Assembly (NCBI GenBank): GCA_963737635.1
Contig: CAVTTL010000001.1
Coordinates: 2,144,001 to 2,208,000, forward strand
Direction: 5' to 3'
Source: an uncultured Methanoregulaceae archaeon
GTDB lineage: Archaea; Halobacteriota; Methanomicrobia; Methanomicrobiales; Methanospirillaceae
Length of the DNA: 64,000 nucleotides
The notes beneath the pieces are model-generated. The model made no database searches, was not told where the DNA came from, and worked only from the letters and a program-made list of their open reading frames with translations. Numbering within the stretch: the stretch's first letter is position 1; each line of letters opens with the position of its first letter. A program made the translations under genes and the position numbers. Of the stretch, positions 2,451 through 15,011 are shown piece after piece.

Positions 2451-2529
2451 GGTGCTGATAAATTAACAGGTGATCGTTATTTTTCTCTCTCGTAAATATT
2501 TTCTCACCACCCTTTAACTTATCAGAACC
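2451..2529. mobile_element. MITE-like element (divergent type B, 79 bp)
   Basis: TIR GGTGCTGATAAATTAA / TTAACTTATCAGAACC (14/16 match). Same length as family A but unrelated interior. Confidence 0.65.
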
Positions 2530-2558
2530 GAATTGGGTATAAGGTTGTTTTTTACGCA

Positions 2559-2637
2559 GGTTCTGTCAAGTCTTCGGGTGTTAGCATTAAGCCTACGTCG
2601 AGGAAAATAGGTCACCACCCGCAGATTTTACAGAGCC
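2559..2637 (-). mobile_element. MITE family A copy 1 (79 bp)
   Basis: GGTTCTGTCAAGTCTTCGGG...CCCGCAGATTTTACAGAGCC. Its reverse complement aligns to the other family A copies. Confidence 0.85.
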
Positions 2638-2760
2638 CAAAAAAATACTTTTTTATGAACACGTAGTGGTTTCGTTCAAACACTATATACTTTTGAAAGG
2701 AGATATAGTGCTCATTGAAATATTCTAGAACTCAGATCTACCTTCCGGACGAATCGCATT

Positions 2761-3264
2761 ATGGCACCTGTAAAGGCATCTGCAAATGAAAGATCCTTCC
2801 TCTCCTCATTTGGATCGAAAATCCGGGAAGATCCGGTTCGTGCAGAAATTACACAAATGATCACCTGCATAAAAGCAGCAGATTGCCTTACCGTGGAACA
2901 TACAGCCGATGAAGCTGGTTATTCTGGCGAGAAATCCAGCCGTGGAGAAAATCCAGTAACTATTCATGTCATAGAGTATGTCCTCGTAAAGCAGCCAGTA
3001 TTCATGGGCCTTATAACAAAGGAGATACAGCAGAGTAAACCAATCTGTATAATCCGGTTTGAGGGTTCCATCTGGAAGATAAAAGAAGAAGATATTTTCA
3101 ACACGGAAAAATTATCCGTTTTGTATAGACACCTCAAGTACTATGGTTTAAAAATTCAATTGGAAGGCACTTCAGAGGAGATACTTAATGGGATTTATAT
3201 TGAAGCTCGCAAAGCACGACCTGGAGCCATTGACCGCCCCCTGCCGGATGGCGAAAAGATATAG
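2761..3264 (+). CDS. Hypothetical protein (167 aa), bracketed by two MITEs
   Basis: ATG-start ORF with plausible composition; no recognised motif. Confidence 0.65.
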   Translation: MAPVKASANERSFLSSFGSKIREDPVRAEITQMITCIKAADCLTVEHTADEAGYSGEKSSRGENPVTIHVIEYVLVKQPVFMGLITKEIQQSKPICIIRFEGSIWKIKEEDIFNTEKLSVLYRHLKYYGLKIQLEGTSEEILNGIYIEARKARPGAIDRPLPDGEKI

Positions 3265-3274
3265 AGGAAAGTGT

Positions 3275-3352
3275 GGTTCTGTAAAGTCTGCGGGGGACGA
3301 CATCTTTCCTCGACGAAATCTTAATACAACCGCCCGAAGACTTGACCGAGCC
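3275..3352 (+). mobile_element. MITE family A copy 2 (78 bp), TGT flanking direct repeat
   Basis: GGTTCTGTAAAGTCTGCGGG...CCCGAAGACTTGACCGAGCC flanked by tgt on both sides. Confidence 0.85.
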
Positions 3353-3425
3353 TGTGCTCATACGCGATCTCCTTATTTGTTGTATTCATCACACTTATTA
3401 TAAAAAAGAGAATTCAGATGATCTA

Positions 3426-3647
3426 TCACTTCTTTTCGATTGACGCTTTGATCATCTTCATAGTCTCGATTTTAAACTGGATCTGTTTGATCCAAGCCTC
3501 TTTCATCATGATCTTGCCTTCAAGCATCCGTGCCATGACCATGTTCTTGGTCTTTTCATCGAGCTTCTCCCACATCATTTTCATGTGTTCGGCCATCTCT
3601 TCTGATCCGTGTTCCATACCCTGTTTTGCTTCCATAGTTCGTGTCAT
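3426..3647 (-). CDS. Small Met-rich helical protein (about 70 aa)
   Basis: MTRTMEAKQGMEHGSEEMAEHMKMMWEKLD...IEKK; AAGGAG upstream; start 3647 or 3635. Confidence 0.7.
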   Translation of the reverse strand: MTRTMEAKQGMEHGSEEMAEHMKMMWEKLDEKTKNMVMARMLEGKIMMKEAWIKQIQFKIETMKMIKASIEKK

Positions 3648-3779
3648 CTCCTTGGTGGTGCACCCAAAAGGGCTCACCAGCCACGCAGTATAATCCAATG
3701 TTGAAATACATCCTTTGTGGCAAAAAACAAAATGTGTGACAAAAAACAAAAAATACCTGCATTGCACCGCTTCATGGGA

Positions 3780-3839
3780 GGTTCTGATGCGACTTCGTTT
3801 AAATGCCATTCCTGCTAATATACCAGCATTCTTTTCTGA
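3780..3839. mobile_element. Truncated MITE-like end abutting copy 3
   Basis: GGTTCTGATGCG terminus with no matching right end; family A copy begins 60 bp later. Confidence 0.4.
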
Positions 3840-3919
3840 GGCTCTGTAAAGTCCGCGGTGGACGACCTTTTTTCCTCGACGAAAGTCTTGATGCAACCTC
3901 CCGAAGACGTGACAGAACC
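3840..3919 (+). mobile_element. MITE family A copy 3 (80 bp)
   Basis: GGCTCTGTAAAGTCCGCGG...CCCGAAGACGTGACAGAACC. Confidence 0.85.
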
Positions 3920-3935
3920 GTATAGAGGAATTCCG

Positions 3936-5336
3936 CTATACTTTTGCCAGCACCATGATTTCCCTGTCTGCAATGACAATAAGCAGTCCCACAACGCTGA
4001 GGATCACCATTACTGCAGCAATTGAATGCAGGCTCTGATCACTGACATCTGGATTAAAGAATATCGCGATAAGGGCCGACGATGCAACCGAGCCAAAATA
4101 CCCAAAGGTACGCAACAGGCCTGAGGCGGTACCGATCTGATCTGCGGTGACCTGGGTGTAAAAGGTTGTCTGGTTCGCACTGGCACACATCCCCATGGTA
4201 ATCCCGAAGATCGCCGTGATTACAACTATCCAGATTATCGGAGTCGCCGAGGTAAATAAAAGTACACCCGCAGACCCTATCAGGCAGGCAACGGCAGACG
4301 CAATAAGGGGAGTGCGCACGAGGTTCCGCCGCGAGACCAGCCACGCAAGCGCAATGGATATGAGACTCATTGGCAAAATGATGAATCCTGCATCAGCGGA
4401 TGAAATATTTTTGTCGATCTGAAGCCATTGCGTGACACCATACATTACGGTGTAGACGCACAGCATCGCAAGGGCAAAGCGCACATAGGTGAGTATCAAT
4501 GGCCGGTTCGTTGCCAACAGATGGAGGTCAATAAAAGGCTGGCTCACATGTCCTTCCCACCAGACAAAGGCCAAACCGAGCAGAATAACTACGCCTAACA
4601 CAACCCAATCTGGATCTGGCAGTGACATGAGAAAGACTAGGAGGGCAATCATCGCGCCACTAAAGACCGTGATGCCGGCCAGATCAATGCGGGCTGCCAA
4701 GGTACGGAGCGTCTTTGTACTCCTGCATGGCGGGTCCCGGGGGATCCAGAACACAGCCATAATGAGCGCCACGAGAGCCAGCGGGACGTTAATAAAAAAC
4801 ACGCTCTGCCAGCCCCAGGCGGCGACGAGGAATCCGCCAATGGGCAGTCCTATAACCGCAGTCGCCATTCCCGCAATCACAAGGCCGCCAAGCACTCCTC
4901 CCGGGGGCTCGGTCAGCCCGGCAGATTCGGCTCGCTGTCGGATCAAAAGCATTGCCGAAGGATATCCGGTCGAGGTGCCCACACCAATCAGGACCCGTGA
5001 TACGATCAACGTTGCGAGGTCATGGCCTAAGCCACCCAGCACTCCTCCAACCAGTACAGCGAGAATACCTGCAAGGAACACCCGCCGTGGCCCAAATGCC
5101 CCCGATAATTTTCCGGCTGCCGGCTGGCCAACGATACATGCCATATAAAGTGCCGCGACCAGAACTGCAGTCTGTCCGACCGGAACGTTGATGGCCGCTG
5201 CAATTGGCACCAGCGCAGTGGCAATGAACGAAGTGTTGACAGGATTTAGTGCGGAACCGATGAACAGGGGTGTTACAAAACGCCAATCGAACGCTTTTTT
5301 GCTTTCGGTGGGTTGAGGCAAGTTGGATTTATTCAT
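3936..5336 (-). CDS. MFS transporter (DHA2-like, about 14 TM)
   Basis: Motif A-like GKLSGAFGPRRV, GWQSVFFINVP, many TM helices. Confidence 0.92.
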   Translation of the reverse strand: MNKSNLPQPTESKKAFDWRFVTPLFIGSALNPVNTSFIATALVPIAAAINVPVGQTAVLVAALYMACIVGQPAAGKLSGAFGPRRVFLAGILAVLVGGVLGGLGHDLATLIVSRVLIGVGTSTGYPSAMLLIRQRAESAGLTEPPGGVLGGLVIAGMATAVIGLPIGGFLVAAWGWQSVFFINVPLALVALIMAVFWIPRDPPCRSTKTLRTLAARIDLAGITVFSGAMIALLVFLMSLPDPDWVVLGVVILLGLAFVWWEGHVSQPFIDLHLLATNRPLILTYVRFALAMLCVYTVMYGVTQWLQIDKNISSADAGFIILPMSLISIALAWLVSRRNLVRTPLIASAVACLIGSAGVLLFTSATPIIWIVVITAIFGITMGMCASANQTTFYTQVTADQIGTASGLLRTFGYFGSVASSALIAIFFNPDVSDQSLHSIAAVMVILSVVGLLIVIADREIMVLAKV

Positions 5337-5585
5337 TCATCATCCCCGGGAACCGGCGAGTAATTTCCCATTTAAATCTGTATCCGGAGAAATCAGATAT
5401 CAATCAAATTTTAATTGACCTGTTGTCAGATCTCCCCGTGTTCTCTATCAAATGAAATTTTATCTCCAGCCACAAGGCTGCTAAAACGCTTTGTCAGCTG
5501 ATTTATGTGTATTGCGACAGACCTGTTACGAGGTCCCATTTAAATTTCCAAGACACTCTTCAAATATTCTCAAAAGTCTTCCTTT

Positions 5586-6281
5586 TCATTTTCCCGGGAA
5601 TCCATTTTTTCGAGTATTTCTTTTTGCAAACTCCCGGACCTTTTCCGATGCATCGGGTCTAAGAGGTATTCCATGTCCCGACAGCATGATATCGAAATCA
5701 AGTGCGGCGATTTTATTGATTGATTGTTGTACCTCACGTGTGTCTAATGGCAATGGTCCTATTTCGATTTTACTACCGTTAAACCTCAATAGATCCCCAA
5801 CAAACAGAATTTTTGATGCCGGATCAAAAAGACAAATACTTCCCGGTGTATGTCCTGGTGTATGAATGGATGTGAGACCAGCGATGGTGTCACCATCGTT
5901 GAGCTTTATATCCGGTTCAACAGGTCTTGATCCGAAAAACAAGGGAATGAGGACTTTAACGATCATTCCCTGAGCACCTCTCGGTACAGGCGGGGTTTTC
6001 CTGCCGGAAACGTAGTCCGCATCCGCTTCATGAATGGCCACCTTCGCACCGCTCAGTTTTTTGAGATCGCTGGCGCCGCCCACGTGATCAATGTGAAAAT
6101 GTGTAAGGACGATTGTTTTGATTTCTGAAGGTTTACGTTTAAGAATATCCTGAATATAGGTTACTATTTTTGCGCTGTTTTTGGGCATTCCTGTATCGAT
6201 AAGTGTCAGTTCGTCCCGAACAATAATAAAACAATTACCATTTACACCATCGACTTGGTGAATTCCAGGTACTATCTCCAT
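5586..6281 (-). CDS. MBL-fold metallo-hydrolase
   Basis: THFHIDHVGG, TPGHTPG, GD and SGHG motifs. Confidence 0.92.
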   Translation of the reverse strand: MEIVPGIHQVDGVNGNCFIIVRDELTLIDTGMPKNSAKIVTYIQDILKRKPSEIKTIVLTHFHIDHVGGASDLKKLSGAKVAIHEADADYVSGRKTPPVPRGAQGMIVKVLIPLFFGSRPVEPDIKLNDGDTIAGLTSIHTPGHTPGSICLFDPASKILFVGDLLRFNGSKIEIGPLPLDTREVQQSINKIAALDFDIMLSGHGIPLRPDASEKVREFAKRNTRKNGFPGK

Positions 6282-6393
6282 AATCCTTCAACTCCATTTT
6301 TTGTAGTTCTTGACTACAAAGATCCAAGGTATGTCAATTTATAGTGGATACTAACAATTTTAGCCTGTGCTAACAAAATATATAGTAACTGTG

Positions 6394-6840
6394 ATGACGA
6401 AGAACGATGATTTTTGGCGATGGATCGAGGCTGCTCTCAATGTGATCGGAGGGAAGTGGAAACTGCTGATCGTTCTTGCATTAATGGACGGGACCCAGCG
6501 ATATAGCGAGATCTCGCATAAGCTTCCGGCAATCAGCGAGAGGATGCTCGTTAAACAGCTCCGTGAGATGGAGCACGACGGTATTATCACAAGGACAGTC
6601 TATGCAGTAGTCCCCGCGAAGGTTGAATATTCGCTTACGCAGTCAGGTGAAAAACTGATTCCTGTTTTGATAATTCTCGGTGTATGGCGTATAATCTACC
6701 GTGGATCCGATGTTGTCTGTGAGGGGTTGTCCGAGCCAGTGGATGTAGACCCCGCCAAACTTCGTCAGCTGCTCGAAGATGTCAACAGTATCCTTCAAGA
6801 TGCCGACAAAAAACTGAAACGCGAGGGTAATGCTGATTAA
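6394..6840 (+). CDS. HxlR-family winged-helix regulator
   Basis: IGGKWK..I, ISERML..QLREME.DG, KVEYSLT; divergent from the MBL gene. Confidence 0.9.
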   Translation: MTKNDDFWRWIEAALNVIGGKWKLLIVLALMDGTQRYSEISHKLPAISERMLVKQLREMEHDGIITRTVYAVVPAKVEYSLTQSGEKLIPVLIILGVWRIIYRGSDVVCEGLSEPVDVDPAKLRQLLEDVNSILQDADKKLKREGNAD

Positions 6841-6844
6841 GCCG

Positions 6845-6924
6845 GGCTCTGTAAAATCCGCGGGTGGCGACATATTCTCCTCGACGAAGGTTTAATGCAA
6901 CCACCCCGAAGACTTGACAGAGCC
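6845..6924 (+). mobile_element. MITE family A copy 4 (80 bp)
   Basis: GGCTCTGTAAAATCCGCGGGTGG...CCCCGAAGACTTGACAGAGCC, starting 4 bp after the HxlR stop. Confidence 0.87.
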
Positions 6925-7057
6925 CTTATTTCTTTACCCAAACAGGGGTGATTTCCCCAATACTATTTCGGGAACAGCTTTCCCAGCGAATCCGAAAAAA
7001 GTGCCGGAATCTGGTAAAATAATGAATTATAAATCCTAGGTGGCCTCATACGAGGGT

Positions 7058-7486
7058 ATGGAAAAGATAGCAGTGCTGGTAGATTCCCGGGGAGGACGTA
7101 CCCGGAGTGCCGCTGTCGCGATCGCGGAAGAGTTAGGGGTGAGTGTCGGGGACATTAAAAACCCGATGCCTGATGCTGAGATCCTTTTCCTCGGAAGCGG
7201 AATGTACGGCACCGGTCCGGGGCATTATATGAACCGCCTTCTCCAAGAGGGCACATTTACCGGAAGGAAGGTTGCCTTGTTTGCAACGGCAACGTATCCC
7301 AAGGATGGAGAGTGGATGCTTATCAGTATGGCGGAAACTCTGGAAAAGAAGGGCGCAACGATCCTCGGGAACACCGGAGGTGTCCGGGGCAAATTGATTA
7401 TCAACAAATACCTGCGCCTGCACCCGGAGGATCTGGAAGGTGCGAGGAACTGGGCCCGGGAGATCGTGGGGAATTACCCGCGCTGA
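7058..7486 (+). CDS. Flavodoxin-family protein
   Basis: SRGGRT..A..IAEEL, LFLGSGMYG, GRKVALFAT, ARNWA. Confidence 0.85.
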   Translation: MEKIAVLVDSRGGRTRSAAVAIAEELGVSVGDIKNPMPDAEILFLGSGMYGTGPGHYMNRLLQEGTFTGRKVALFATATYPKDGEWMLISMAETLEKKGATILGNTGGVRGKLIINKYLRLHPEDLEGARNWAREIVGNYPR

Positions 7487-7566
7487 TTGTGCCTTTGGAA
7501 AAGTGGCCGGACCCTCGCTTCGATCCTTCTTACCGCCCATCGGGCTGACAATGGTTGCCTTTAAGA

Positions 7567-7640
7567 GGCTCCGTCTAAGGGCGGTTGCATTAAGCCTTTG
7601 TCGAAGAAAATATGTCGCCACCCGCAGACTCGACAGAGTC
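7567..7640 (-). mobile_element. MITE family A copy 5 (74 bp, short deletion), AGA flanking direct repeat
   Basis: GGCTCCGTC...CCACCCGCAGACTCGACAGAGTC; interior aligns with copy 1; flanked by aga on both sides. Confidence 0.8.
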
Positions 7641-7658
7641 AGAGTATACCCTTTTTAT

Positions 7659-8321
7659 TTACACCGGGTCTTTTTTCGCAAACCTTGCACCCATATCGAA
7701 AGCTTTCTGGCAATCAACGGGGAACTTTTCTTCCCTGCGCTGTTTGGCTTTGGCTGCCGCATCATGCGAACAGACGTATTTCGTGTAATCGTCAAACAGG
7801 TCTGTGCCCGTAACGACCAGCGATTCGGCAGAGCCGAAGATCCGACCCAGGATCATCCCGGTGAGTGCGAAGTGACTGTCGAGCTGCATCGTCTTTATAC
7901 CATCCTCGTCTGCCCCCAAGGTTAAGATGAGCCCGGTCTTGATCTTTTTCGGGAATATCGAGGACCCGAGAATTTCGAGGGAGAAGTACGGGTACGCGGC
8001 CCGCTCGAAGAATGACCTCATCTCTCCGGTGACCGTGCCAAAGTAAATAGGCGATCCTAATATCAAGGCATCAACACCCGGTATCTTTTCCAGCACCGGG
8101 GTGAGGCCATCCTGAACTGCACATTTCCCATAACTTTTCCCGCCCTTCAGTTTGCAGGCTAAGCAGCTGGTGCAACCTTTGAAGTCAAGGTCATATAAAT
8201 GGACGATTTCGGTCGCGGCACCCTGTGATGCAGCGCCTTCGAGTACCTTGTTCAACAGCGTTGCGGTATTCCACGTCTTTCTTGGGCTCCCGTTGATTGC
8301 TAAAACGTTCATTATACCCAC
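7659..8321 (-). CDS. Iron-sulfur flavoprotein (ISF) / flavodoxin-family protein
   Basis: INGSPRK.WNT, CxxCxxC..C cluster motif, GSPIYFG. Confidence 0.9.
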   Translation of the reverse strand: MGIMNVLAINGSPRKTWNTATLLNKVLEGAASQGAATEIVHLYDLDFKGCTSCLACKLKGGKSYGKCAVQDGLTPVLEKIPGVDALILGSPIYFGTVTGEMRSFFERAAYPYFSLEILGSSIFPKKIKTGLILTLGADEDGIKTMQLDSHFALTGMILGRIFGSAESLVVTGTDLFDDYTKYVCSHDAAAKAKQRREEKFPVDCQKAFDMGARFAKKDPV

Positions 8322-9161
8322 GTCACGGTGAGGGATTTGCTGCGCTCCGGGATGCGCACCGGTTTATACTTTGGATACCCGGCCAACAACGCGCCGGCAA
8401 GCTTGCGGTTGTCCGGGATGTGGAGGGCTTCCCTTACGGGACGGTAATTCTGGGCAACACTGACCAACCGGCCAGCCCAGCACGTCCCGAGCCCGAAAGC
8501 CGGGGCGGTAATATCGACATGGGTAAGTGCGATGATCGCGTCGGTCTGTACCAGACCTGTGGTATCCGCCGTGCCCGTGGGAACATGGGCGCAGATAAGA
8601 ACCGGAGCGCCCCGACAGAGAATATCGATCCCGTTATTCCAGTATTCAGTGAGTAAAGGGATGAGTGGAGTGAGAGGTTGATCACTTTTCACCGATTCCT
8701 GTAAATAATCCAACGTAAGTGCGGCGATGGTATGGACTTTTTCAGCACCATTCACGACTACCCATTCGACAGGCTGGTAATTTCCCCCGGTCGCAGCATA
8801 GCGGGCGTTTTCAAGGATCTGCATGAGGGTTTCATTGGCCACCGGTTCGGGACGGTATATCCGGATCGAACGGCGACTTTTGAGGTAGGTACCTGAACTT
8901 CTCCGGACCGACTGATCCGGGTGCTGCTGCACGTTGAAGGTGCACACCTTCCTTGTGTTCGCGGGTCAGCGCCCCTGTTGGACAGAACGCTTCGCAATGC
9001 CCGCAGGACAGACACCATGCCTCCTTCGGGGACGGGATTTCCGGAAGCGCAGTAGAGTTATCAGCCAGTGTTATAATCTGCGTCGTGCAAATCTCCGAAC
9101 AGATCCCGCACCGGGTGCAGAGATCACGATCAACGGTTATTCCGATCATAAGGATAACCAT
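8312..9161 (-). pseudogene. 4Fe-4S ferredoxin-domain nitroreductase, frameshifted near 8900-8945
   Basis: CTRCGICSEIC and CLSCGHCEAFCP in one frame; SRRSIR..GLGTCWAG nitroreductase domain in another. Confidence 0.85.
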
Positions 9162-9268
9162 CCTGAAAATGTGAGATCGGCATTGCCGTCAGTTTCTTCA
9201 ATTTTTCTCACACCAGATTTGAATCGTTTGTGTTGCATACCAAATAGTACGCATAGGCGGGATAAATA

Positions 9269-9287
9269 GTTTGTTAGACTAACAAAC
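9269..9287. promoter_or_regulatory. Perfect palindrome, probable MarR operator for the nitroreductase-ISF operon
   Basis: GTTTGTTAG-A-CTAACAAAC between the MarR stop and the nitroreductase start. Confidence 0.6.
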
Positions 9288-9299
9288 CAATCTGTTGAT

Positions 9300-9740
9300 T
9301 CACTCTTTCTTCTCTGATGAGCAATCAATCATAATCCGAAATGCTTTGATAAGGGTTTTTTGCTGGTTTTCTGTTGTGGTTTTCTCAATCTGCTCTATGA
9401 ATGCCTGAAAAACCCGCTGTTTGTGTTTAAAAACCTGACAACCTTTTTCGCTCAGGGTCAGGAGAAATTTGCGCTGATCAACATCGGATTGGGTCCGGAT
9501 AACGAATCCGTCCTTCATAAGTTTTGTTATCGCGGCGTTAGCTGAAGGTTTTGAGACACCGAGTTTTTGGGCAAGTTCGGTTAGGGTGATACTGTCGTTG
9601 CGTTGGATGCCCCGTAAATAATAGAACTGGTTGAGGGTAAGATCACAAAAACCGATCTTTTCCATTTCGATTCTATCTGCTTCAACGGTAACATGTTTGT
9701 ACCGTTCGATAAACTGAGCAAATAGATCCCTTAAATCCAT
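9300..9740 (-). CDS. MarR-family regulator
   Basis: LTLNQF..L, ITLTELA..LGVSKPS, DQRKFLLTLSEKG. Confidence 0.9.
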   Translation of the reverse strand: MDLRDLFAQFIERYKHVTVEADRIEMEKIGFCDLTLNQFYYLRGIQRNDSITLTELAQKLGVSKPSANAAITKLMKDGFVIRTQSDVDQRKFLLTLSEKGCQVFKHKQRVFQAFIEQIEKTTTENQQKTLIKAFRIMIDCSSEKKE

Positions 9741-9780
9741 AGCAGTACATAGAACCAGTTCAAACATTAAGGTAATGGGG

Positions 9781-9867
9781 GGTTCTGTCGCGTTGACAGG
9801 ACTTAAAGTAACACCGTGGTGAGGACCATTAATTGGTATTTAAACATCCCGTAAATGCAACAGCACC
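9781..9867. mobile_element. MITE-like element type C (87 bp)
   Basis: TIR GGTTCTGTCGCGTTGACAGGA / TCCCGTAAATGCAACAGCACC. Confidence 0.7.
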
Positions 9868-9939
9868 CTCATGCTCGTTTTTGTAGTATGCAGTCGCCCG
9901 GTGCGTGTGCCGGGCGACGGGTTCATGATACCCGCTTCT

Positions 9940-10545
9940 TCAGGGTATCCATTTGAGGATGACGTCGGCATTGCGGGCAGGCGCCGGAAGGGGGCTTTTC
10001 GCCGGGTAGCCGAATATTAACGGTGCGACGAGCTTGTGGTCCTTGGGGATACTTGCCTCCTTCAGGAATGCCTCATCGGAGCCAAGGCCGGCTGCAAGTC
10101 CAATCCAGCAGCTGCCGATCCCCAGCGAATGCGCTGCAAGCATCATGTTCTCTGCTGCGAGGGCGCAGTCGTGTTCATTAAGCGCATCCGGGGAGGCAAA
10201 GACGAGGATGAAAACAGGCGCTTCGTACAGGATCCGGACTTCCGGTTTTGTCAGGTTCTTTGCATAGCCGGCCAGCTCCGGGATGGTCGAGTCCTTGAAC
10301 ATGCTGACGAAGATCTTCTTGGCCCTCTCGTCATACTCATCGATGAGTTTCCTGTTCTTGATGACAACGAATCGCCACGGCTGTTTATTGACGGCGGTCG
10401 GGGCATAGGTGCCTGCCCGGATAATCTCCCGGATAATCTCATCGGGGACGTCTTTGTCGGAATACTTCCGTACGGATCTTCTCCCATAGATAGTATCCAT
10501 GACAGGGTTCGAGAGCGGTTTGTCGGGTTTTTTAGATGTAGTCAT
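9940..10545 (-). CDS. Nitroreductase-family protein
   Basis: RRSVRKY, APTAVNKQPWRF, AHSLGIGSCWIG. Confidence 0.93.
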   Translation of the reverse strand: MTTSKKPDKPLSNPVMDTIYGRRSVRKYSDKDVPDEIIREIIRAGTYAPTAVNKQPWRFVVIKNRKLIDEYDERAKKIFVSMFKDSTIPELAGYAKNLTKPEVRILYEAPVFILVFASPDALNEHDCALAAENMMLAAHSLGIGSCWIGLAAGLGSDEAFLKEASIPKDHKLVAPLIFGYPAKSPLPAPARNADVILKWIP

Positions 10546-10710
10546 TGTTTCACCAATACTGCATCATTCCTTGACGGATATAACCATTGTCAACGATACA
10601 ACAAAAATCAGTGTGCCTTTTTCATTATAATCCATTCATTCTCACGGATATACTTCGATACCCAGTTTCAGCGCAATATTCATTATCGCTCTGAATCAGT
10701 ATAATCCACA

Positions 10711-10802
10711 GGTTCTGTTGCGTCGTCGGGACCTTTACATAATCAATATTGATGGATTAAGACGATACAATTTTCGGCAAGTCCCGATAAGGCAACAGCA
10801 CT
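10711..10802. mobile_element. MITE-like element type C (92 bp)
   Basis: 22-bp imperfect TIR GGTTCTGTTGCGTCGTCGGGAC / GTCCCGATAAGGCAACAGCACT. Confidence 0.7.
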
Positions 10803-10830
10803 TGTGAACACATGAGAACCGCTATATCCA

Positions 10831-11679
10831 TCAGAGAGTTTGTTTCAGGAGAAATTGTCTTATTTTTTCTCCTGTATCCGTTCCGGGTAACGGAGTGAAA
10901 ACCGTCATTTTCAGATGGGTATTATCGGAAACCAGATAACTGGCAATCTCAAAATCCAATGATCCTAACACCGGGTGAATAACCGTCTTAAACCGCTCCT
11001 CCTCCGTTCTGACGTTATGCATTGGCCACAACAAAGCAAACTCCGTGCTTTCGCTTTTCAGTTCATTTACAAAGTGTTCAATCCAGGGATCTTCAGCAAA
11101 TTTACCGCAGGCTGAGCGGAACCTGGCGACCATTCCCTGTGCGGCAGACTCCCAGTCGGGAAATGTCTTTCTGAATTCTTTATTGGTAAACATAATTCGG
11201 ATCACATTGCGCTCGTGAACACTGAATTTACCAAAATCCGCCAGAATTTCTGCAGCCCTGTTCCATGCAATCACATTCCAGCGGGCATCCAAAATAGTTG
11301 CAGGAGAACATTCCAAGCTGTCCAGAACATGCTGCAAGATCGGATTAACCGTTTCGTTGCTGGTGGGAAAAACGGCCGGTGGCGTTTGTTGGGCAAGGTT
11401 GTAAAGATGTACGGTCTCCTGCTTATCAAGCATCAGAGTCCTTGCCAGATTTTCAAGCACCTGTGTGGATACCTGGACAGGACGTCCCTGTTCGATCCAT
11501 GTATACCACGTTAATCCAATTCCCGAAAGAGAGGCAACCTCCTCTCGCCTCAGGCCGGGTGTCCGGCGGCGTGAGCCTTCGGGCAGGCCGATCTGCGAAG
11601 GCAGAATATTTGCCCTGCGTGTTTTTAAAAAATCCCCGAGTTCCTTGTACCTTTGCTTTGGGTTTTCCGGAGTGTCCAT
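10831..11679 (-). CDS. XRE-HTH regulator with MmyB-like ligand-binding domain
   Basis: RRRTPGLRREEVA, WYTWIEQGR, AWNRAA, HPVLGSLDF. Confidence 0.92.
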   Translation of the reverse strand: MDTPENPKQRYKELGDFLKTRRANILPSQIGLPEGSRRRTPGLRREEVASLSGIGLTWYTWIEQGRPVQVSTQVLENLARTLMLDKQETVHLYNLAQQTPPAVFPTSNETVNPILQHVLDSLECSPATILDARWNVIAWNRAAEILADFGKFSVHERNVIRIMFTNKEFRKTFPDWESAAQGMVARFRSACGKFAEDPWIEHFVNELKSESTEFALLWPMHNVRTEEERFKTVIHPVLGSLDFEIASYLVSDNTHLKMTVFTPLPGTDTGEKIRQFLLKQTL

Positions 11680-11702
11680 TTCCTTTCCCTATCAGGGTAG
11701 TA

Positions 11703-11718
11703 ATTATACTAGTATAAT
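11703..11718. promoter_or_regulatory. Palindromic operator between the divergent regulator and SDR genes
   Basis: Perfect 16-bp palindrome ATTATACTAGTATAAT. Confidence 0.55.
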
Positions 11719-11835
11719 CATTTTCCTACCAATAGTATATATCAGAAGGGAATATCAAAACATGCCTGTAACCCACGGACCGGTTTCAGGAGTAAACGTG
11801 ATTGAAATTTAAAAAAAGAAACGAGGCAGGAAAAA

Positions 11836-12630
11836 ATGACAGCAGAACTCTCAGAAAATACAAAGAAACCCGGTACCAGGATCGCTCTCGTTACCGGAGG
11901 AAGCCGCGGTCTTGGCCGTAGCACCGTGTTAAACCTCGCCAAGAGGGGCGTTGACTCGATCTTTACCTATCATACCAACCGTGCGGAGGCCGAGAAGGTC
12001 GCCGGACTTGTGCGTGAGACGGGGCGCAAGGCTGTCGTCCTGCAGCTTGACACGGGTAATGTATCTTCGTTCGATGCGTTTGTGCAGAACGTACGAGGGG
12101 CACTCACTGATTTGGGAGCCGAACGCTTCGATTATCTTGTCAATATGGCCGGTATCTCGCACCACAATTCATTTGCTCAGACGACTGAACAGGAGCTGGA
12201 TAACCTCTACAACGTCCATTTCAAGGGGGTTTTCTTCCTGACACAGAAGCTCCTACCACTTATGAACGATGGCGGCAGGATTGTCAATATTGCGTCAGGG
12301 CTCACCCGCGTCGTGATGCCGGGAAGCTGCGCCTATGCATCCATGAAGGGCGCCGTTGAAATCATGACCCGCTATCTGGCTTTGGAACTGGGTCCCCGGA
12401 GGATTGCGGTTAATGTTGTTGCTCCCGGGGCTATGGCGACCGATTTTAGTGGCGGCATGGTTCGCGATAACCCGGAAATGAATAAACGGGTAGCAGACAT
12501 GACGGCGCTCGGCCGAGCCGGCCTTCCGGAGGACATCGGCCCGATGATTGCCTCGCTGCTCTCCGAGGAGAACCGCTGGATCAATGCCCAGCGTATCGAG
12601 GTCTCGGGCGGCATGTCGATCTCGATCTAA
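11836..12630 (+). CDS. Short-chain dehydrogenase/reductase
   Basis: TGGSRGLG, YASMK, VNVVAPG. Confidence 0.94.
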   Translation: MTAELSENTKKPGTRIALVTGGSRGLGRSTVLNLAKRGVDSIFTYHTNRAEAEKVAGLVRETGRKAVVLQLDTGNVSSFDAFVQNVRGALTDLGAERFDYLVNMAGISHHNSFAQTTEQELDNLYNVHFKGVFFLTQKLLPLMNDGGRIVNIASGLTRVVMPGSCAYASMKGAVEIMTRYLALELGPRRIAVNVVAPGAMATDFSGGMVRDNPEMNKRVADMTALGRAGLPEDIGPMIASLLSEENRWINAQRIEVSGGMSISI

Positions 12631-12701
12631 AAGGGTACTGGTTTTTGTAACCTCCCTTTCTGACAAAATGCCTGGTTACACTGACACTGGTTGAATTTTA
12701 C

Positions 12702-12768
12702 GGTTCTGTAGCGTTGACCGCACGAGACCCAACCGATGTCGACCTAATCGGAGTTAATTATTAGTGGC
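12702..12768. mobile_element. Truncated type C element abutting copy 6
   Basis: GGTTCTGTAGCGTTGAC matches the 9781 left end (GGTTCTGTCGCGTTGAC) at 16/17; no right end found. Confidence 0.6.
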
Positions 12769-12848
12769 GGCTCTGTAACGTCTGCGGGGGGGCACCATTT
12801 TTTCTTCGGCGAAGGCTTAACGCAACCACCCAAAGACTTGACAGAGCC
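12769..12848 (+). mobile_element. MITE family A copy 6 (80 bp), GGC flanking direct repeat
   Basis: GGCTCTGTAACGTCTGCGGG...CCCAAAGACTTGACAGAGCC flanked by ggc on both sides. Confidence 0.85.
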
Positions 12849-12892
12849 GGCGGCACATCCCGGGCTGTCTCTTTTGATCCTTTTGAACAATT

Positions 12893-13639
12893 TCATTTCC
12901 ACTTGGTAAGGATCTCTTCCCTCCGGAATGTGGACACCGAGAGAGAGAAAAGCCCTACATCTACGACAAGGATAATTGCCGAGATGAGGAGGAGATACGG
13001 TATCGTAAGCGGAAACACATCTATCAAACCGAGTACGTAGATCAATGCAAAGGGGATCACGATCAGGGATCCAAGTTGCTGTGCGGTCCGCACATCGTTT
13101 ACCCTGGCCGAGACGATTACGCTCGCCTCTACCGCGGTGATAGCTACCAGCGGCACCAGCAGCAGCATGATGGCCGCCATAACTGTGTTTGGATAATAGA
13201 GATAGCCAAGCAGACCAAAGGTGATGGCGTCGATCAGGCCCATGAAGATCACCCCACCGATCCAGATGGCAACCAGGGGGGGAAGAAGTGCCCCGATGCT
13301 CTTACCGAGCAGGATCTCGCTGTCGGTGGTGGGGGTGGCGAGCAGCGGCTCCAGGCTCTGTTCCTGTTTTTCGCCGACAATACTGAAGGATGCGATCGCC
13401 GTGGGGAGGCTGGCCGCACCCATGATGAAGATAAAGGCGAAGGCATTTATGACGGGGGGAAGGCCAGACTGTACATCTGAAAGGCTGCTGCCGGATTTCG
13501 CTAAAAGAGAGTAGATCAGCAGGGGCAGACCGACGGACACGAAGAGGGGAAAGAGGATTACGCTGTAGAAGATACTTTTCTTTTTCTGGAAAATGCTGAT
13601 ATCCTTCGAAGCGACAATCCACGCTTTTGAAAATCTCAT
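12893..13639 (-). CDS. ABC-2 type permease
   Basis: SIVGEK..SLEPLLATP..ILLGK motif; about 6 TM. Confidence 0.9.
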   Translation of the reverse strand: MRFSKAWIVASKDISIFQKKKSIFYSVILFPLFVSVGLPLLIYSLLAKSGSSLSDVQSGLPPVINAFAFIFIMGAASLPTAIASFSIVGEKQEQSLEPLLATPTTDSEILLGKSIGALLPPLVAIWIGGVIFMGLIDAITFGLLGYLYYPNTVMAAIMLLLVPLVAITAVEASVIVSARVNDVRTAQQLGSLIVIPFALIYVLGLIDVFPLTIPYLLLISAIILVVDVGLFSLSVSTFRREEILTKWK

Positions 13640-14556
13640 AGTGTTTCCCTCACGGTCTTCAGATATACGTCTTCAAGGGTGGGATTGAGTCCCTGGACGA
13701 ACTGGATGCGGCCGCCCGCAGCAGAGATGGCTTCCACCAAACCCGGGTTTTCCTTTTCTGCGTTTATCACATCAATCATCAGCCGATGGTCTTCGACCAC
13801 CACCTTTCCCAAAGTATGGTGTTTCACTGCCGCCACGATCCTGTCGTTGACCTCTTCAAGCTGGATGACCGTTTTACTGCCCCAGAGCGCCTCTTTCAGC
13901 TCATCCGTTGTACCTATCCGGAGCAGATGTGTTTTGAGAATACCGATACGGTCACAGAGTTTTTGCGCCTCGTCAAGGTTGTGCGTGTTGAGGAAGATGG
14001 TCTTTTTCTCTTTTTTCAGTTCCAGTATGAAGTCCCGGACCGTTTTTGCTGCCTCGGGGTCCAAGTTGGCCGTGGGCTCGTCCAGAAACAAAATCTCGGG
14101 GTCGTGCACCAGGGCACGGGCGACGGCCACTTTCTGTTTCATACCTTTAGAGAATGTTCCCACGGGTTGGTCTTTCTTTTCCCAGAGCCCGAGAAGCCTG
14201 AGCAGGCGTTCGATGCTCTCTTTTCTTTGTTGATCGGTACGATCAAACAACTTCGCGTAAAAATCGAGATTTCGATAGGCGCTCAGTTCGCCATACAGGC
14301 CGACATTTTCCGGCATAAAACCGATGATTTTACGAATCTTCAGGGAATCGGCGTCGTCCCCGGTATCATACCCGGCGATCCTTGCCTCACCGCTGGTCTT
14401 GGCGATGAGGCAGCAGAGCATTCGTACCGTGGTCGTTTTTCCGGCACCGTTGGGGCCGAGGAACCCGAAGACCTCGCCTTCATTGACATGGAATGTCAGA
14501 TCGTCGACCGCGGTGAAGTCTCCGAATTTTTTCGTGAGGTTTATTGCATCGATCAT
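13636..14556 (-). CDS. ABC transporter ATP-binding protein
   Basis: GPNGAGKTT, FSKGMKQK, LFLDEPT. Confidence 0.94.
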   Translation of the reverse strand: MIDAINLTKKFGDFTAVDDLTFHVNEGEVFGFLGPNGAGKTTTVRMLCCLIAKTSGEARIAGYDTGDDADSLKIRKIIGFMPENVGLYGELSAYRNLDFYAKLFDRTDQQRKESIERLLRLLGLWEKKDQPVGTFSKGMKQKVAVARALVHDPEILFLDEPTANLDPEAAKTVRDFILELKKEKKTIFLNTHNLDEAQKLCDRIGILKTHLLRIGTTDELKEALWGSKTVIQLEEVNDRIVAAVKHHTLGKVVVEDHRLMIDVINAEKENPGLVEAISAAGGRIQFVQGLNPTLEDVYLKTVRETL

Positions 14557-14933
14557 GTCATATCTCCGAATACTATCACGGAAGTTGCGAGGAGCATTCC
14601 TGCCGGAAAACGTATCGTGTCATGCATTTTTTGCCCCAAGCCAGATTGTATAAAATCTTCCCAGATTCCCACAATTTCACCTTACCTTTGATAGGATTGC
14701 ATGGCCAGTTCCTTTTTTCTCAATGAATAATGCAGGTACCTTCCCGGTCTCACCAACTACATAGAGGCCGTGGGTTGACAATATAAAATGAGCGGTTGTC
14801 GTTCACATTTTCATCACGTCATAGTCTGCCGGATCGAGCTCGCTTCTTCATTTCTCCATGAAGGTATACGCATCCCCGGTCAGGTCCGGTTCTTTCAGGA
14901 CAACCTGCGCTTCTTAGGGACAGGCAAAAATCG

Positions 14934-15011
14934 GGCTCTGGAGAAAACCTCTCTGAAAAGGGTGTACCGACGTTAGAAAGAGCTCAGGTACGGAGAACTC
15001 TTTACAAAGGC
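14934..15011. mobile_element. Degenerate MITE-like element (78 bp)
   Basis: GGCTCTGGAG...CTTTACAAAGGC; length fits the family but the TIR is weak. Confidence 0.35.

Follow-up and report, generated by a model that had tools for sequence, protein, structure and literature searches.

A 17-kb array of IS6-like MITEs among accessory gene modules in a methanogenic archaeon

The window analyzed here is a 64,000-bp stretch (positions 2,144,001 to 2,208,000) of contig C1 from an uncultured Methanoregulaceae archaeon (genome G000); coordinates are those of the window unless preceded by C1. Based on Pfam, which confirmed the gene labels of a preliminary description of this DNA, the window opens with a TetR-DrrAB module (1-2435, + strand), in which the TetR gene begins upstream of the window and the genes for an ABC ATPase (629-1624) and an ABC-2 permease (1617-2435) follow. 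Next to it are a 167-aa orphan ORF (2761-3264, + strand) that matches no family and has 71%-identical DNA elsewhere in genome G020, and a gene for a 73-aa Met-rich protein (3426-3647, − strand), the DNA of which is 77-81% identical in other members of the genus. The MFS-MBL-HxlR module (3936-6840) comprises genes on both strands for an MFS protein (3936-5336, −), an MBL-fold hydrolase (5586-6281, −), and HxlR (6367-6840, +), and contains what remains of an ABC ATPase gene at 5428-5470. It is followed by a gene for a flavodoxin-like protein (7040-7486, +); an FMN reductase-nitroreductase-MarR module (7659-9767, −; 7659-8321, 8312-8947, and 9300-9767, respectively); a second nitroreductase gene (9940-10545, −); a module (10831-12630) with genes for an MmyB-like regulator (10831-11679, −) and an SDR (11836-12630, +); and an ABC-2 permease-ABC ATPase pair (12893-14556, −). 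The modules thus consist of one to three genes for efflux pumps, MBL-fold hydrolases, nitroreductases, and flavoproteins, and most have their own regulator.

Interspersed with these modules are nine complete elements of 75-96 bp, all present where the preliminary description had placed them. They have inverted ends of the GGYKCTG type that agree at 17-20 of 24 positions, and lack coding capacity, in agreement with the proposal that they are non-autonomous. Six of them form a core subfamily, in which the interior is conserved (82% mean column identity over these six and two further copies): 2559-2637 (−; nhmmer E = 6e-24), 3275-3352 (+; 11 bp past the stop codon of the orphan ORF), 3840-3919 (+; 17 bp from the MFS stop codon), 6845-6924 (+; 4 bp past the HxlR stop codon), 7566-7642 (−; element 7568, eroded at one end, between the genes for flavodoxin and FMN reductase), and 12769-12848 (+; the last of the array). 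The elements at 2451-2529 (GGTGCTGATAA subfamily; 16 bp past the stop codon of DrrB, ends agreeing at 19/24 positions), 9781-9867 (GGTTCTGTYGCG ends; 13 bp in front of the MarR start codon), and 10711-10802, given without strand, have only the ends in common with the core copies and belong to other subfamilies. Based on nhmmer, element 2451 has weak relatives elsewhere in the genome, and the subfamily of element 10711, the ends of which match those of a 4-kb transposon at C1:425105-429100, is dispersed, with ~9 further copies scattered over C1.

The array extends beyond the window, beginning 4.1 kb upstream of it, where core copies lie at C1:2139869 and 2143480 and elements of other subfamilies at C1:2140098 and 2141417. 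This ~17-kb zone (C1:2139869-2156848) is the densest MITE stretch of the 2.46-Mb genome. MITE 2559 is the sister of C1:2143480, with which it has derived variants in common, and these two copies bracket the TetR-DrrAB module in inverted orientation relative to each other; MITE 12769 is the sister of the first copy, C1:2139869. Elements abut or are nested at at least four places. In contigs of an independent study (run X2), seven of the elements are spanned in unchanged order with 0-1 differences, arguing against an assembly artefact. The two half-elements of the preliminary description (3780/3781-3839 and 12702-12768, no strand) abut MITEs 3840 and 12769, respectively, and do carry the left-terminus motif; because they have this motif alone and are single-copy by nhmmer, we treat them as candidate elements rather than as members of a repeat. 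The degenerate element described at 14934 is a member of another repeat family and stands outside the MITE family proper (14905-15011, no strand; copies at C1:785266 and 855609). A search of 15012-64000 identified no elements, as had been described for these 49 kb.

A comparison of ORF tables with element coordinates places most elements at a distance of 3-45 bp from stop codons, and no array element interrupts an ORF in this genome; both observations had been made before, and the second holds for this genome, while G020 and G044 have a gene truncated at an element. The proximity to stop codons, the interior of the core elements, which is well conserved across species, and the position of element 9781, which places the MarR promoter in or beyond this element because only 13 bp separate it from the start codon, would be compatible with domesticated elements that function as terminators, promoters, insulators, or regulator-binding sites and are kept at module borders by selection. 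Nevertheless, we consider domestication improbable. We observed no covariation (term +1.83; compensatory pairs 1/24), no Rfam family was matched, the hairpins are weak, with element 3840 folding no better than 165/200 shuffles, and the elements occur in both orientations. Moreover, the core copies resemble a single consensus in a star-like manner, as expected after recent copying rather than under selection; they are 83-95% identical to a near-consensus copy. The array contains three MBL-fold genes, two nitroreductase genes, and two ABC pairs, as might be expected if it had grown by segmental duplications that copied modules along with their elements; this origin is refuted by the low protein identity of the paralogues (26-35%) compared with the identity of the core MITEs to the near-consensus copy.

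The preliminary description also proposed an integron-like platform, driven in trans by a transposase or recombinase. In a platform of the site-specific kind, the elements would be the sites on which a tyrosine or serine recombinase acts. Integrons have been reported in Archaea too; like the array, they consist of serial small modules split by short imperfect palindromes, and the punctuated, cassette-like layout as well as the absence of target duplications (see below) would suit such a platform. Phage_integrase matched the genome at just two loci, C1:273900 and C1:1459787, both over 680 kb away from the array. The eight strong core copies are oriented + + − + + + − + along the array, and the modules run in both directions with their own regulators. 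Additionally, the ends of the elements equal those of a DDE transposon, and the weak folds, together with the lack of covariation, provide no attC-like feature. Thus, the array differs from integrons in integrase, common orientation, attC-type structure, and, judging from its DDE-transposon-type ends, chemistry, making an integron-like platform highly improbable; an IS26-type array or pseudo-compound transposon is the better analogy.

To map the elements genome-wide, the six core copies were used as an nhmmer query against the entire 2.46-Mb genome. Eight strong matches (E < 1e-19) were identified, all within C1:2139869-2156848 and two of them upstream of the window; the next distinct loci reached E values of only 4e-4 and 1e-3. 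The core subfamily is, therefore, extremely clustered, and by our own arithmetic the chance of eight points falling within 0.7% of the chromosome is ~1e-14. An end-based scan, which ignores the element interior, identified 21 MITE-like elements on C1, of which nine are inside the 17-kb zone, and none in the reversed sequence used as a control.

An archaeal IS6-like transposon family gave rise to the array elements, which are MITEs and fall into several subfamilies. According to PMC7986276, ends of the IS6 family carry GG at their tips and CTGT at positions 5-8, the target duplication is 8 bp, and the family forms arrays, with intramolecular transposition removing flanking repeats; the array ends match these motifs, supporting the IS6-like ends of the preliminary description. 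The transposase gene with the same termini that it had called for is present ~230 kb from the array in a 3.2-kb element (C1:2385539-2388757) that encodes a 382-aa IS6-like DDE transposase in an intact frame. The core MITE ends (left, GGCTCTGTAAAGTCTGCGGG; right, GGCTCTGTCAAGTCTTCGGG) correspond to those of this element (left, GGTTCTGTAAAGTCTGCGGGG; right, GGTTCTGTCAAGTCTGCGGGG), and the same A/C difference distinguishes left from right in both. Based on these sequences, the core subfamily is best explained as an internally deleted form of this element type.

The transposase contains a DDE_Tnp_IS240 catalytic domain (PF13610, 49 bits; 49-60 bits among cognate-type transposases of 382-421 aa; cut-off 27) and N-terminal SWIM and zinc-ribbon motifs. 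Its best NCBIfam model is that of the IS6 family, with a full-length match of 114 bits against a cut-off of 125. A related element (C1:425105-429100; 3996 bp) ends in perfect terminal repeats of 54 bp and is flanked by an equally perfect 8-bp target duplication (GACTAACG), the flanks of C1:2385539-2388757 match at 5/8 positions, and no target duplication was found in the flanks of the full element of G085. The ends of the full elements (GGTTCTGT...) have GG tips and the CTGT motif, as in the IS6 family, and their terminal repeats of ~54-60 bp, longer than the short repeats of that family, are accompanied by a second internal repeat. With lengths of 3.2 and 4.0 kb and extra ORFs, the full elements do not match the typical single-gene IS6 element of ~0.7-0.9 kb. 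Six of 100 other genus genomes encode a transposase of at least 63% identity, and five of the six carry the MITE; the complete genomes of G020, G077, and G115 contain MITEs and no such transposase, and a search of G020 at E ≤ 1e-60 gave no match.

Target duplications were not evident at the MITEs: none of 12 array elements and none of 16 dispersed copies of other subfamilies reached five of eight matching flank bases, and none of 29 copies scored at fetched loci, a set that leaves aside two further copies at contig edges, reached six of eight. No 8-mers common to the flanks of different array copies exceeded the null expectation, so neither a cointegrate nor an inversion signature was found. 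The predicted circular module-plus-element intermediates, and joints, were absent from the assembled contigs of four runs, which drop rare forms.

Judged by nucleotide identity, four modules have recently been exchanged between Methanoregula species. Compared with G020, G044, and G077, the MFS gene is 94-95% and MBL-HxlR 88-92% identical (88-95% for the MFS-MBL-HxlR module against G020 and G044); nitroreductase-MarR is 87-93% identical, as is the module with FMN reductase against G020, G044, and G077; and the flavodoxin gene is 83% identical to a G020 locus, 2 Mb from the counterparts of the other modules. The background identity between G020 and G000 is 65-81% (blocks of at least 300 bp in a 120-kb G020 region). 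In G020 and G044, nitroreductase-MarR, MFS, and MBL-HxlR are contiguous in this order, unlike in this genome, and the junctions are the outer edges of elements 9781 and 3840. Homology to G020 and G044 begins 9 bp beyond MITE 3840, and homology to G041, G114, G020, and G044 ends 4-24 bp before MITE 6845. Moreover, G020 and G044 have a 103-bp MITE after the nitroreductase gene and an FMN reductase gene cut to 14 nt, a related element occupies the position of 9781 in G077, and the end of another element lies at the 7568 site in G020, which also has a 2.6-kb native block between two core MITEs, apart from its G000 neighbours. Module reordering between genomes is, therefore, evident, and several breakpoints are at element edges as had been suggested; however, others (5366/5563, 5428, and 8110) are away from elements, and the coincidence is inflated because elements fill almost every intergenic gap, so that any block ending with a gene is bound to have one nearby.

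MITE matches were found in 25 of 100 other genus genomes, and support clustering only in part. Of 86 copies in these genomes, 16 have a neighbor within 5 kb compared with 2.2 expected, an ~7-fold excess, and small MITE-flanked modules were also found in four other genomes; however, 65 of the 86 have no neighbor within 10 kb, and copies are mostly dispersed in the complete genomes of G077 and G115. These isolated copies, the dispersal of the other subfamilies across this genome, and the breakpoints away from elements would fit ordinary MITEs that accumulated passively in a fast-evolving accessory zone that tolerates insertions, where they mark gaps and gene traffic has other causes. We regard passive accumulation as unlikely, if worth serious consideration. 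Consistent with it, element flanks are AT-rich like any intergenic DNA (61% versus 48% in the genome), the GC content of the array is at the 10th percentile among 20-kb windows, no joints were found in the contigs of four runs, and parts of the G020 MITE cluster match DNA adjoining this array, which suggests a common plastic zone. Passive accumulation leaves unexplained that all eight copies of one subfamily are in 0.7% of the chromosome, that target duplications are totally absent, that elements abut one another, that junctions are exactly at outer element edges with a gene truncated at an element, and that close pairs are over-represented across the genus.

We favor, with modest confidence, that the locus is an IS26-style array built of MITEs and not of full insertion sequences and driven in trans, and we infer that the elements probably have a causal role in gene capture. 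In this model, the intact transposase encoded at C1:2385539-2388757 would act on MITE ends in trans, and the array would grow and reshuffle by IS6-style reactions at these ends. Intramolecular replicative transposition would generate adjacent deletions and inversions, incoming DNA would fuse with the array at MITE ends, and insertion may occur next to an existing element end; homologous recombination between element copies could contribute. Reactions of this IS6 type leave no flanking target duplications, favor short-range events, and produce arrays. We counted against this model the lack of target duplications, the isolated copies (65/86), and the mixed orientation, as well as the missing transposase in MITE-bearing G020, G077, and G115, the NCBIfam score below the cut-off, and the size of the full elements (3.2-4.0 kb). 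More tentatively, and as a rather doubtful extension, we speculate that, in Methanoregula, the 80-bp MITEs are portable sites at which an IS6-like transposase recombines DNA in trans, such that any segment of one to three genes with MITEs at its borders could be excised, passed between species, and re-inserted beside another MITE.

The array resembles the bacterial IS26/IS6 arrays, pseudo-compound transposons, and translocatable units in several respects. As described in PMC7986276, these have GG tips and CTGT in common with the array ends, and in both cases repeats without flanking duplications lie among accessory genes, adjacent truncations occur, and elements stand beside elements; the family's 8-bp duplication is also made by the full-length relative C1:425105-429100. 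In contrast, IS26/IS6 arrays consist of 0.8-kb insertion sequences rather than 80-bp MITEs, and IS26 translocatable-unit arrays have direct orientation, whereas the core copies are mixed. In addition, the host here is an archaeon, the putative cognate transposase is 230 kb away, and the transposases (382-421 aa) have SWIM and zinc-ribbon motifs and score below the NCBIfam IS6 cut-off. In MITE-flanked composites, such as integron mobilization units and the MITE-bounded resistance genes of Acinetobacter, paired elements are mobilized in trans. As here, two small non-autonomous elements bracket a gene; however, the composites are single pairs with target duplications, while the array has a dozen elements in series and no target duplications. 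According to PMC7986276 and PMC6807381, ISfinder lists only two IS6-family MITEs, MITEBth2 and MITEHarch3 (227 and 336 bp). As described there, they are non-autonomous and have IS6-type ends like the array MITEs, and one is archaeal, judging by its name; the array MITEs differ by their size (75-96 bp), their several subfamilies, and their dense arrangement.

The routes by which methanogens gain and rearrange accessory genes are poorly understood. At this locus, modules for stress responses and detoxification are common to Methanoregula species at up to 95% identity compared with the 65-81% background. If the MITEs are the agents, IS26-like array building, which is what makes IS26 important in antibiotic resistance, operates in Archaea and 80-bp ends suffice for it. 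In that case, the search strategy for such arrays would change because transposase-based annotation misses MITE arrays. If the portable-site reading were true, the array would be a transposase-driven functional counterpart of integrons without a resident integrase or full insertion sequences. Young copies without target duplications also bear on the mechanism of this transposase family, which is large (4365 database proteins at E ≤ 1e-20) and is named in NCBI records only as "DDE-type integrase/transposase/recombinase".

The source genome (2.46 Mb in four contigs, 51.6% GC) encodes McrA, and the host is thus a methanogen, as had been assumed. All nine complete inverted-repeat elements of the preliminary description were found at their places (2451, 2559, 3275, 3840, 6845, 7568, 9781, 10711, and 12769; bare numbers are window positions, those preceded by C1: contig positions, and the window is C1:2144001-2208000). 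Six of them (2559, 3275, 3840, 6845, 7568, and 12769) have a conserved 33-nt interior and ends in common and form a core subfamily, to which two copies just upstream of the window (C1:2139869 and C1:2143480) also belong; the mean column identity of these copies is 82%. Elements 2451, 9781, and 10711 have only GGYKCTG-type ends in common with the core and represent other subfamilies; the gap between 2451 and 2559 is 29 bp. The two half-elements listed earlier are each a terminus motif only and single-copy, and the supposedly degenerate element at 14934 belongs to another repeat, also present at C1:785266 and C1:855609. On its upstream side, the array reaches 4.1 kb beyond the window. The copies at C1:2143480 and 2559 share derived bases and are inverted around the TetR-ABC genes, and the first (C1:2139869) and last (12769) copies share derived bases and are in direct orientation; each of the remaining array copies is nearest to the family consensus and not to another copy. 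Because contigs from X2, a sequencing run of a different study, span 3275+3840, 6845+7568, and 9781+10711+12769 with 0-1 differences, the array layout is not an assembly artefact.

The gene labels of the modules were borne out by Pfam. The modules comprise TetR with an ABC ATPase and an ABC-2 permease; a 167-aa ORF without a family match; a Met-rich protein of 73 aa; MFS, an MBL-fold hydrolase, and HxlR; a flavodoxin-like protein; FMN reductase, nitroreductase, and MarR; the second nitroreductase of the array; an MmyB-like regulator with an SDR; and the second ABC-2 pair. Further array genes, beyond the upstream edge of the window, encode an NMT1-type binding protein, two further MBL-fold proteins, and PadR. 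Segmental duplication as the builder of the array was ruled out, the array paralogues having only 26-35% protein identity.

Using a profile built from the six core copies inside the window, we found eight strong matches genome-wide (E < 1e-19), all of them in C1:2139869-2156848; the next-best loci were C1:1669551 (E = 4e-4) and C1:1931413 (E = 1e-3), and a covariance model search of the genome gave the same picture. By our own arithmetic, the chance of eight points falling inside 0.7% of the chromosome is ~1e-14. Based on the element ends only, a scan of the contig, which is strict and missed known copies such as 3840 and 7568, returned 21 elements, nine of them inside the 17 kb, and none in a reversed-sequence control. 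The core subfamily is strongly clustered, with 8/8 strong copies in 17 kb, and the profile and covariance model searches and the ends-only scan found no element in the remaining 49 kb of the window, consistent with the initial impression. Two more zones, C1 ~1613390-1669630 and ~2358392-2388757, contain many MITE-like elements from other subfamilies. It is common for elements to adjoin one another, as 2451 and 2559 do. In the former zone, element C1:1613390-1613468 abuts a truncated element, and termini are nested at C1:1616873 and C1:1616882; the latter contains the transposon described next.

The DDE_Tnp_IS240 domain occurs at four loci of the source genome. An enzyme encoded outside the array had been proposed to act on the elements, and a transposase gene with matching termini was found in the 3219-bp element C1:2385539-2388757, hereafter the cognate transposon. 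Its left end is GGTTCTGTAAAGTCTGCGGGG and its right end GGTTCTGTCAAGTCTGCGGGG; those of the core element are GGCTCTGTAAAGTCTGCGGG and GGCTCTGTCAAGTCTTCGGG, and in both elements the left end differs from the right by the same single A/C exchange. Judged by its sequence, the core element looks like an internal deletion derivative of this transposon. The 382-aa transposase frame is intact and has SWIM-like and zinc-ribbon motifs N-terminal to the catalytic domain; among NCBIfam models, that of the IS6 family matches it best, over the full profile, with 114 bits against a cut-off of 125. A second transposase, 41% identical, lies inside the 3996-bp element C1:425105-429100, whose 54-bp terminal repeats and 8-bp duplication (GACTAACG) are both perfect and whose ends match the dispersed subfamily of element 10711. 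According to the available text of a review, IS6-family features are GG tips, a CTGT motif, and an 8-bp duplication (PMC7986276). The suspected likeness of the ends to those of IS6/IS26 holds in that they have GG tips and the CTGT motif, with the 8-bp duplication on the relative C1:425105-429100. Altogether, the elements are very probably MITEs of IS6-like type whose cognate transposase, apparently intact, is encoded by the same genome. Transposase homologues in public databases are named Methanoregula sp., and 6/6 matches among public records with the same element bear the name Methanoregula or Methanoregulaceae, so that the host genus is probably Methanoregula.

Besides its 406-aa SWIM+DDE transposase, element C1:425105-429100 (locus L086) encodes two cargo proteins, one of GmrSD_N restriction type (379 aa) and one of HEPN RiboL-PSP type (228 aa). 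It is an IS6-like element with defence cargo; only two MITEs and one cargo-carrying member are known for the IS6 family as far as the available text of the review goes (PMC7986276). Two full-length-type ends, at C1:2385528 and C1:2385539, are 10 bp apart: the end of a second full-length-type element (C1:2385503-2385539), with terminal and subterminal repeats, adjoins the left end of the cognate transposon, and no transposase remnant was found to its left.

None of the 12 array elements has a target duplication (0-4 of 8 flank bases match), nor has any of 29 copies in the fetched loci (maximum 5 of 8), among which near-consensus and therefore young copies were included and beside which two further copies at contig edges were unscored. 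The same was true of 16 dispersed copies of other subfamilies. No 8-mers common to the flanks of different array copies, split or inverted, were found beyond the sampled null, and the flanks show no conserved target motif beyond a general AT richness and a weak bias towards G at position -1 (17/36 copies). An RNA gene was ruled out: Rfam identified one tRNA only in the window and nothing matching the elements, whose hairpins are weak to moderate, and RNAalifold detected no covariation. The array is also not the integron-like platform of the preliminary description. The genome has only two tyrosine recombinase genes, at C1:273900 and C1:1459787; orientations are mixed, the modules bring their own regulators, and the ends are of the DDE transposon type.

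Four array modules are shared with other genomes of the genus (G numbers) at identities well above the background of 65-81% between the source genome and G020 (blocks of >=300 bp in a 120-kb sample). These are MFS (94% in G020, 95% in G044), MBL+HxlR (88-92% in G020, G044, G041, and G114), nitroreductase+MarR (90% in G020, 93% in G044, 87% in G077), and flavodoxin (83% in G020); none of the 100 genomes searched has a high-identity match to the remaining modules. The 231-aa MBL-fold gene (5586-6281) occurs in at least 15 of the 100 other genomes at 88-94% DNA identity and in varied contexts, and its contig depth is several-fold above that of its neighbours in the soil runs X2, X3, and X8; it looks like a widely exchanged gene.

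The order of the shared modules differs. In the source genome, MFS-MBL-HxlR is followed by an element, flavodoxin, an element, FMN reductase-nitroreductase-MarR, and an element, while G020 and G044 have nitroreductase-MarR (8299-9784), MFS (3929-5366), and MBL-HxlR (5563-6821) in that order. On one side, their MarR/MFS junction falls at the outer edge of element 9781 and on the other at or within ~9 bp of the outer edge of element 3840, with just a handful of bases separating the two homology stretches. Homology to G041, G114, G020, and G044 ends 4-24 bp short of element 6845, past which the sequences are unrelated. The flavodoxin block of G020 runs from 42 bp past 6845 to 10 bp short of 7568, where G020 has the end of another element, and G077 carries a related element at the exact position of 9781. 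Next to a 103-bp MITE that comes after the nitroreductase gene, G020 and G044 retain just the first 14 nt of the FMN-reductase gene, an element-adjacent truncation. G020 also has a 2.6-kb native block, separated from its neighbours in the source genome, between two core MITEs. The expectation that breakpoints coincide with elements thus held at the MarR/MFS junction and the edge of 6845 and failed at 5366/5563, where G020 and G044 have an internal deletion; at 8110, in G077; and at 5428, where ~45 nt between MFS and MBL (5428-5470) are kept from the 5' end of an otherwise missing ABC ATPase gene. G041 and G114 have the intact gene beside MBL, and the remnant is the scar of an older junction away from any element. 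Breakpoints away from elements speak for the main rival explanation, that MITEs accumulated passively in a plastic zone, which we regard as possible but rather doubtful. Because elements occupy nearly every intergenic gap, block ends at gene ends are often near one; we counted as informative the MarR/MFS junction, the truncated gene, and the shared element positions.

The best-supported mechanism, an inferred one that we hold at least as probable as its negation, is instead that the MITEs drive module traffic in an IS26-like manner. In intramolecular replicative transposition by IS6 elements, the DNA between element and target is deleted or inverted and flanking repeats are lost, and the family forms arrays, as stated in the available text of the review (PMC7986276). 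Such transposition would fit the missing duplications, short-range clustering, mixed orientations, and truncation; however, the split 8-mers that it predicts were not found. No joints were present in contigs of runs X2, X3, X5, and X8 (uncovered bins, in the numbering of this contig comparison, 4670-5336 in X5 and 12674-13340 in X8), and a single X5 row, joining 8796 to 1395 in that numbering, connects one MITE copy to another, an artefact of repeats. Loose contig ends lie exactly at element outer edges at 12425 (X2 and X5) and 15368 (X8) of locus L070; these are no more than hints, and other organisms may be their source. Each of the two components of this array is known already, the IS6-family MITE as well as the IS26-type array. 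We found no description in the literature of MITE arrays in methanogens or Methanoregula; supplementary tables might list such elements.

The core element is present in 25 of the 100 other genomes by model search. Among 86 copies transcribed from that match list, the nearest neighbour is no more than 5 kb away for 16 and no more than 10 kb away for 21, compared with 2.2 and 4.3 expected if uniform; in the source genome, 8/10 copies have a neighbour, compared with 0.7 expected. The other 65/86 copies have no neighbour inside 10 kb. Among complete genomes, the copies are fully dispersed in G077 and mostly dispersed in G115, and 5/6 copies of G020 lie inside 38 kb. Because the G020 core copies are too eroded for its strict filter, the ends-only scan finds one element in 120 kb around that cluster and is unusable for counting there. 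Of the 100 other genomes, six encode a transposase with >=63% identity to the cognate one, and 5/6 of these have the MITE, a co-occurrence given without a test statistic because related genomes are not independent; G020, G077, and G115 have MITEs and no such transposase. Small MITE-flanked modules are also present in G111, G080, G058, and G066, with different cargo (an XhoI-type endonuclease, a flavodoxin-domain protein, and proteins without a family match). Beside MITE clusters at eight loci in six other genomes, the only array-protein homologues are an ABC ATPase and a weak TetR match, and the clusters are therefore without common cargo.

Just 13 bp separate element 9781 from the start codon of MarR (region 9767-9867), so the promoter of its operon must be in or beyond this element; at the matching site, G020 and G044 have an AT-rich, TATA-like stretch and no element. 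The array is bracketed by inverted, paralogous PAS/HisKA_2 histidine kinase genes (9654-12701 of locus L005, minus strand; window 15054-17612, plus strand), whose products are ~85% identical over the C-terminal ~220 residues and 47% over a 539-residue alignment; homologous recombination between them could invert the whole zone. A 668-aa ORC-CDC6-like (PF24389) protein is encoded ~6 kb to the left of the array (L005:6005-8011), and the surroundings may be a wider variable region.
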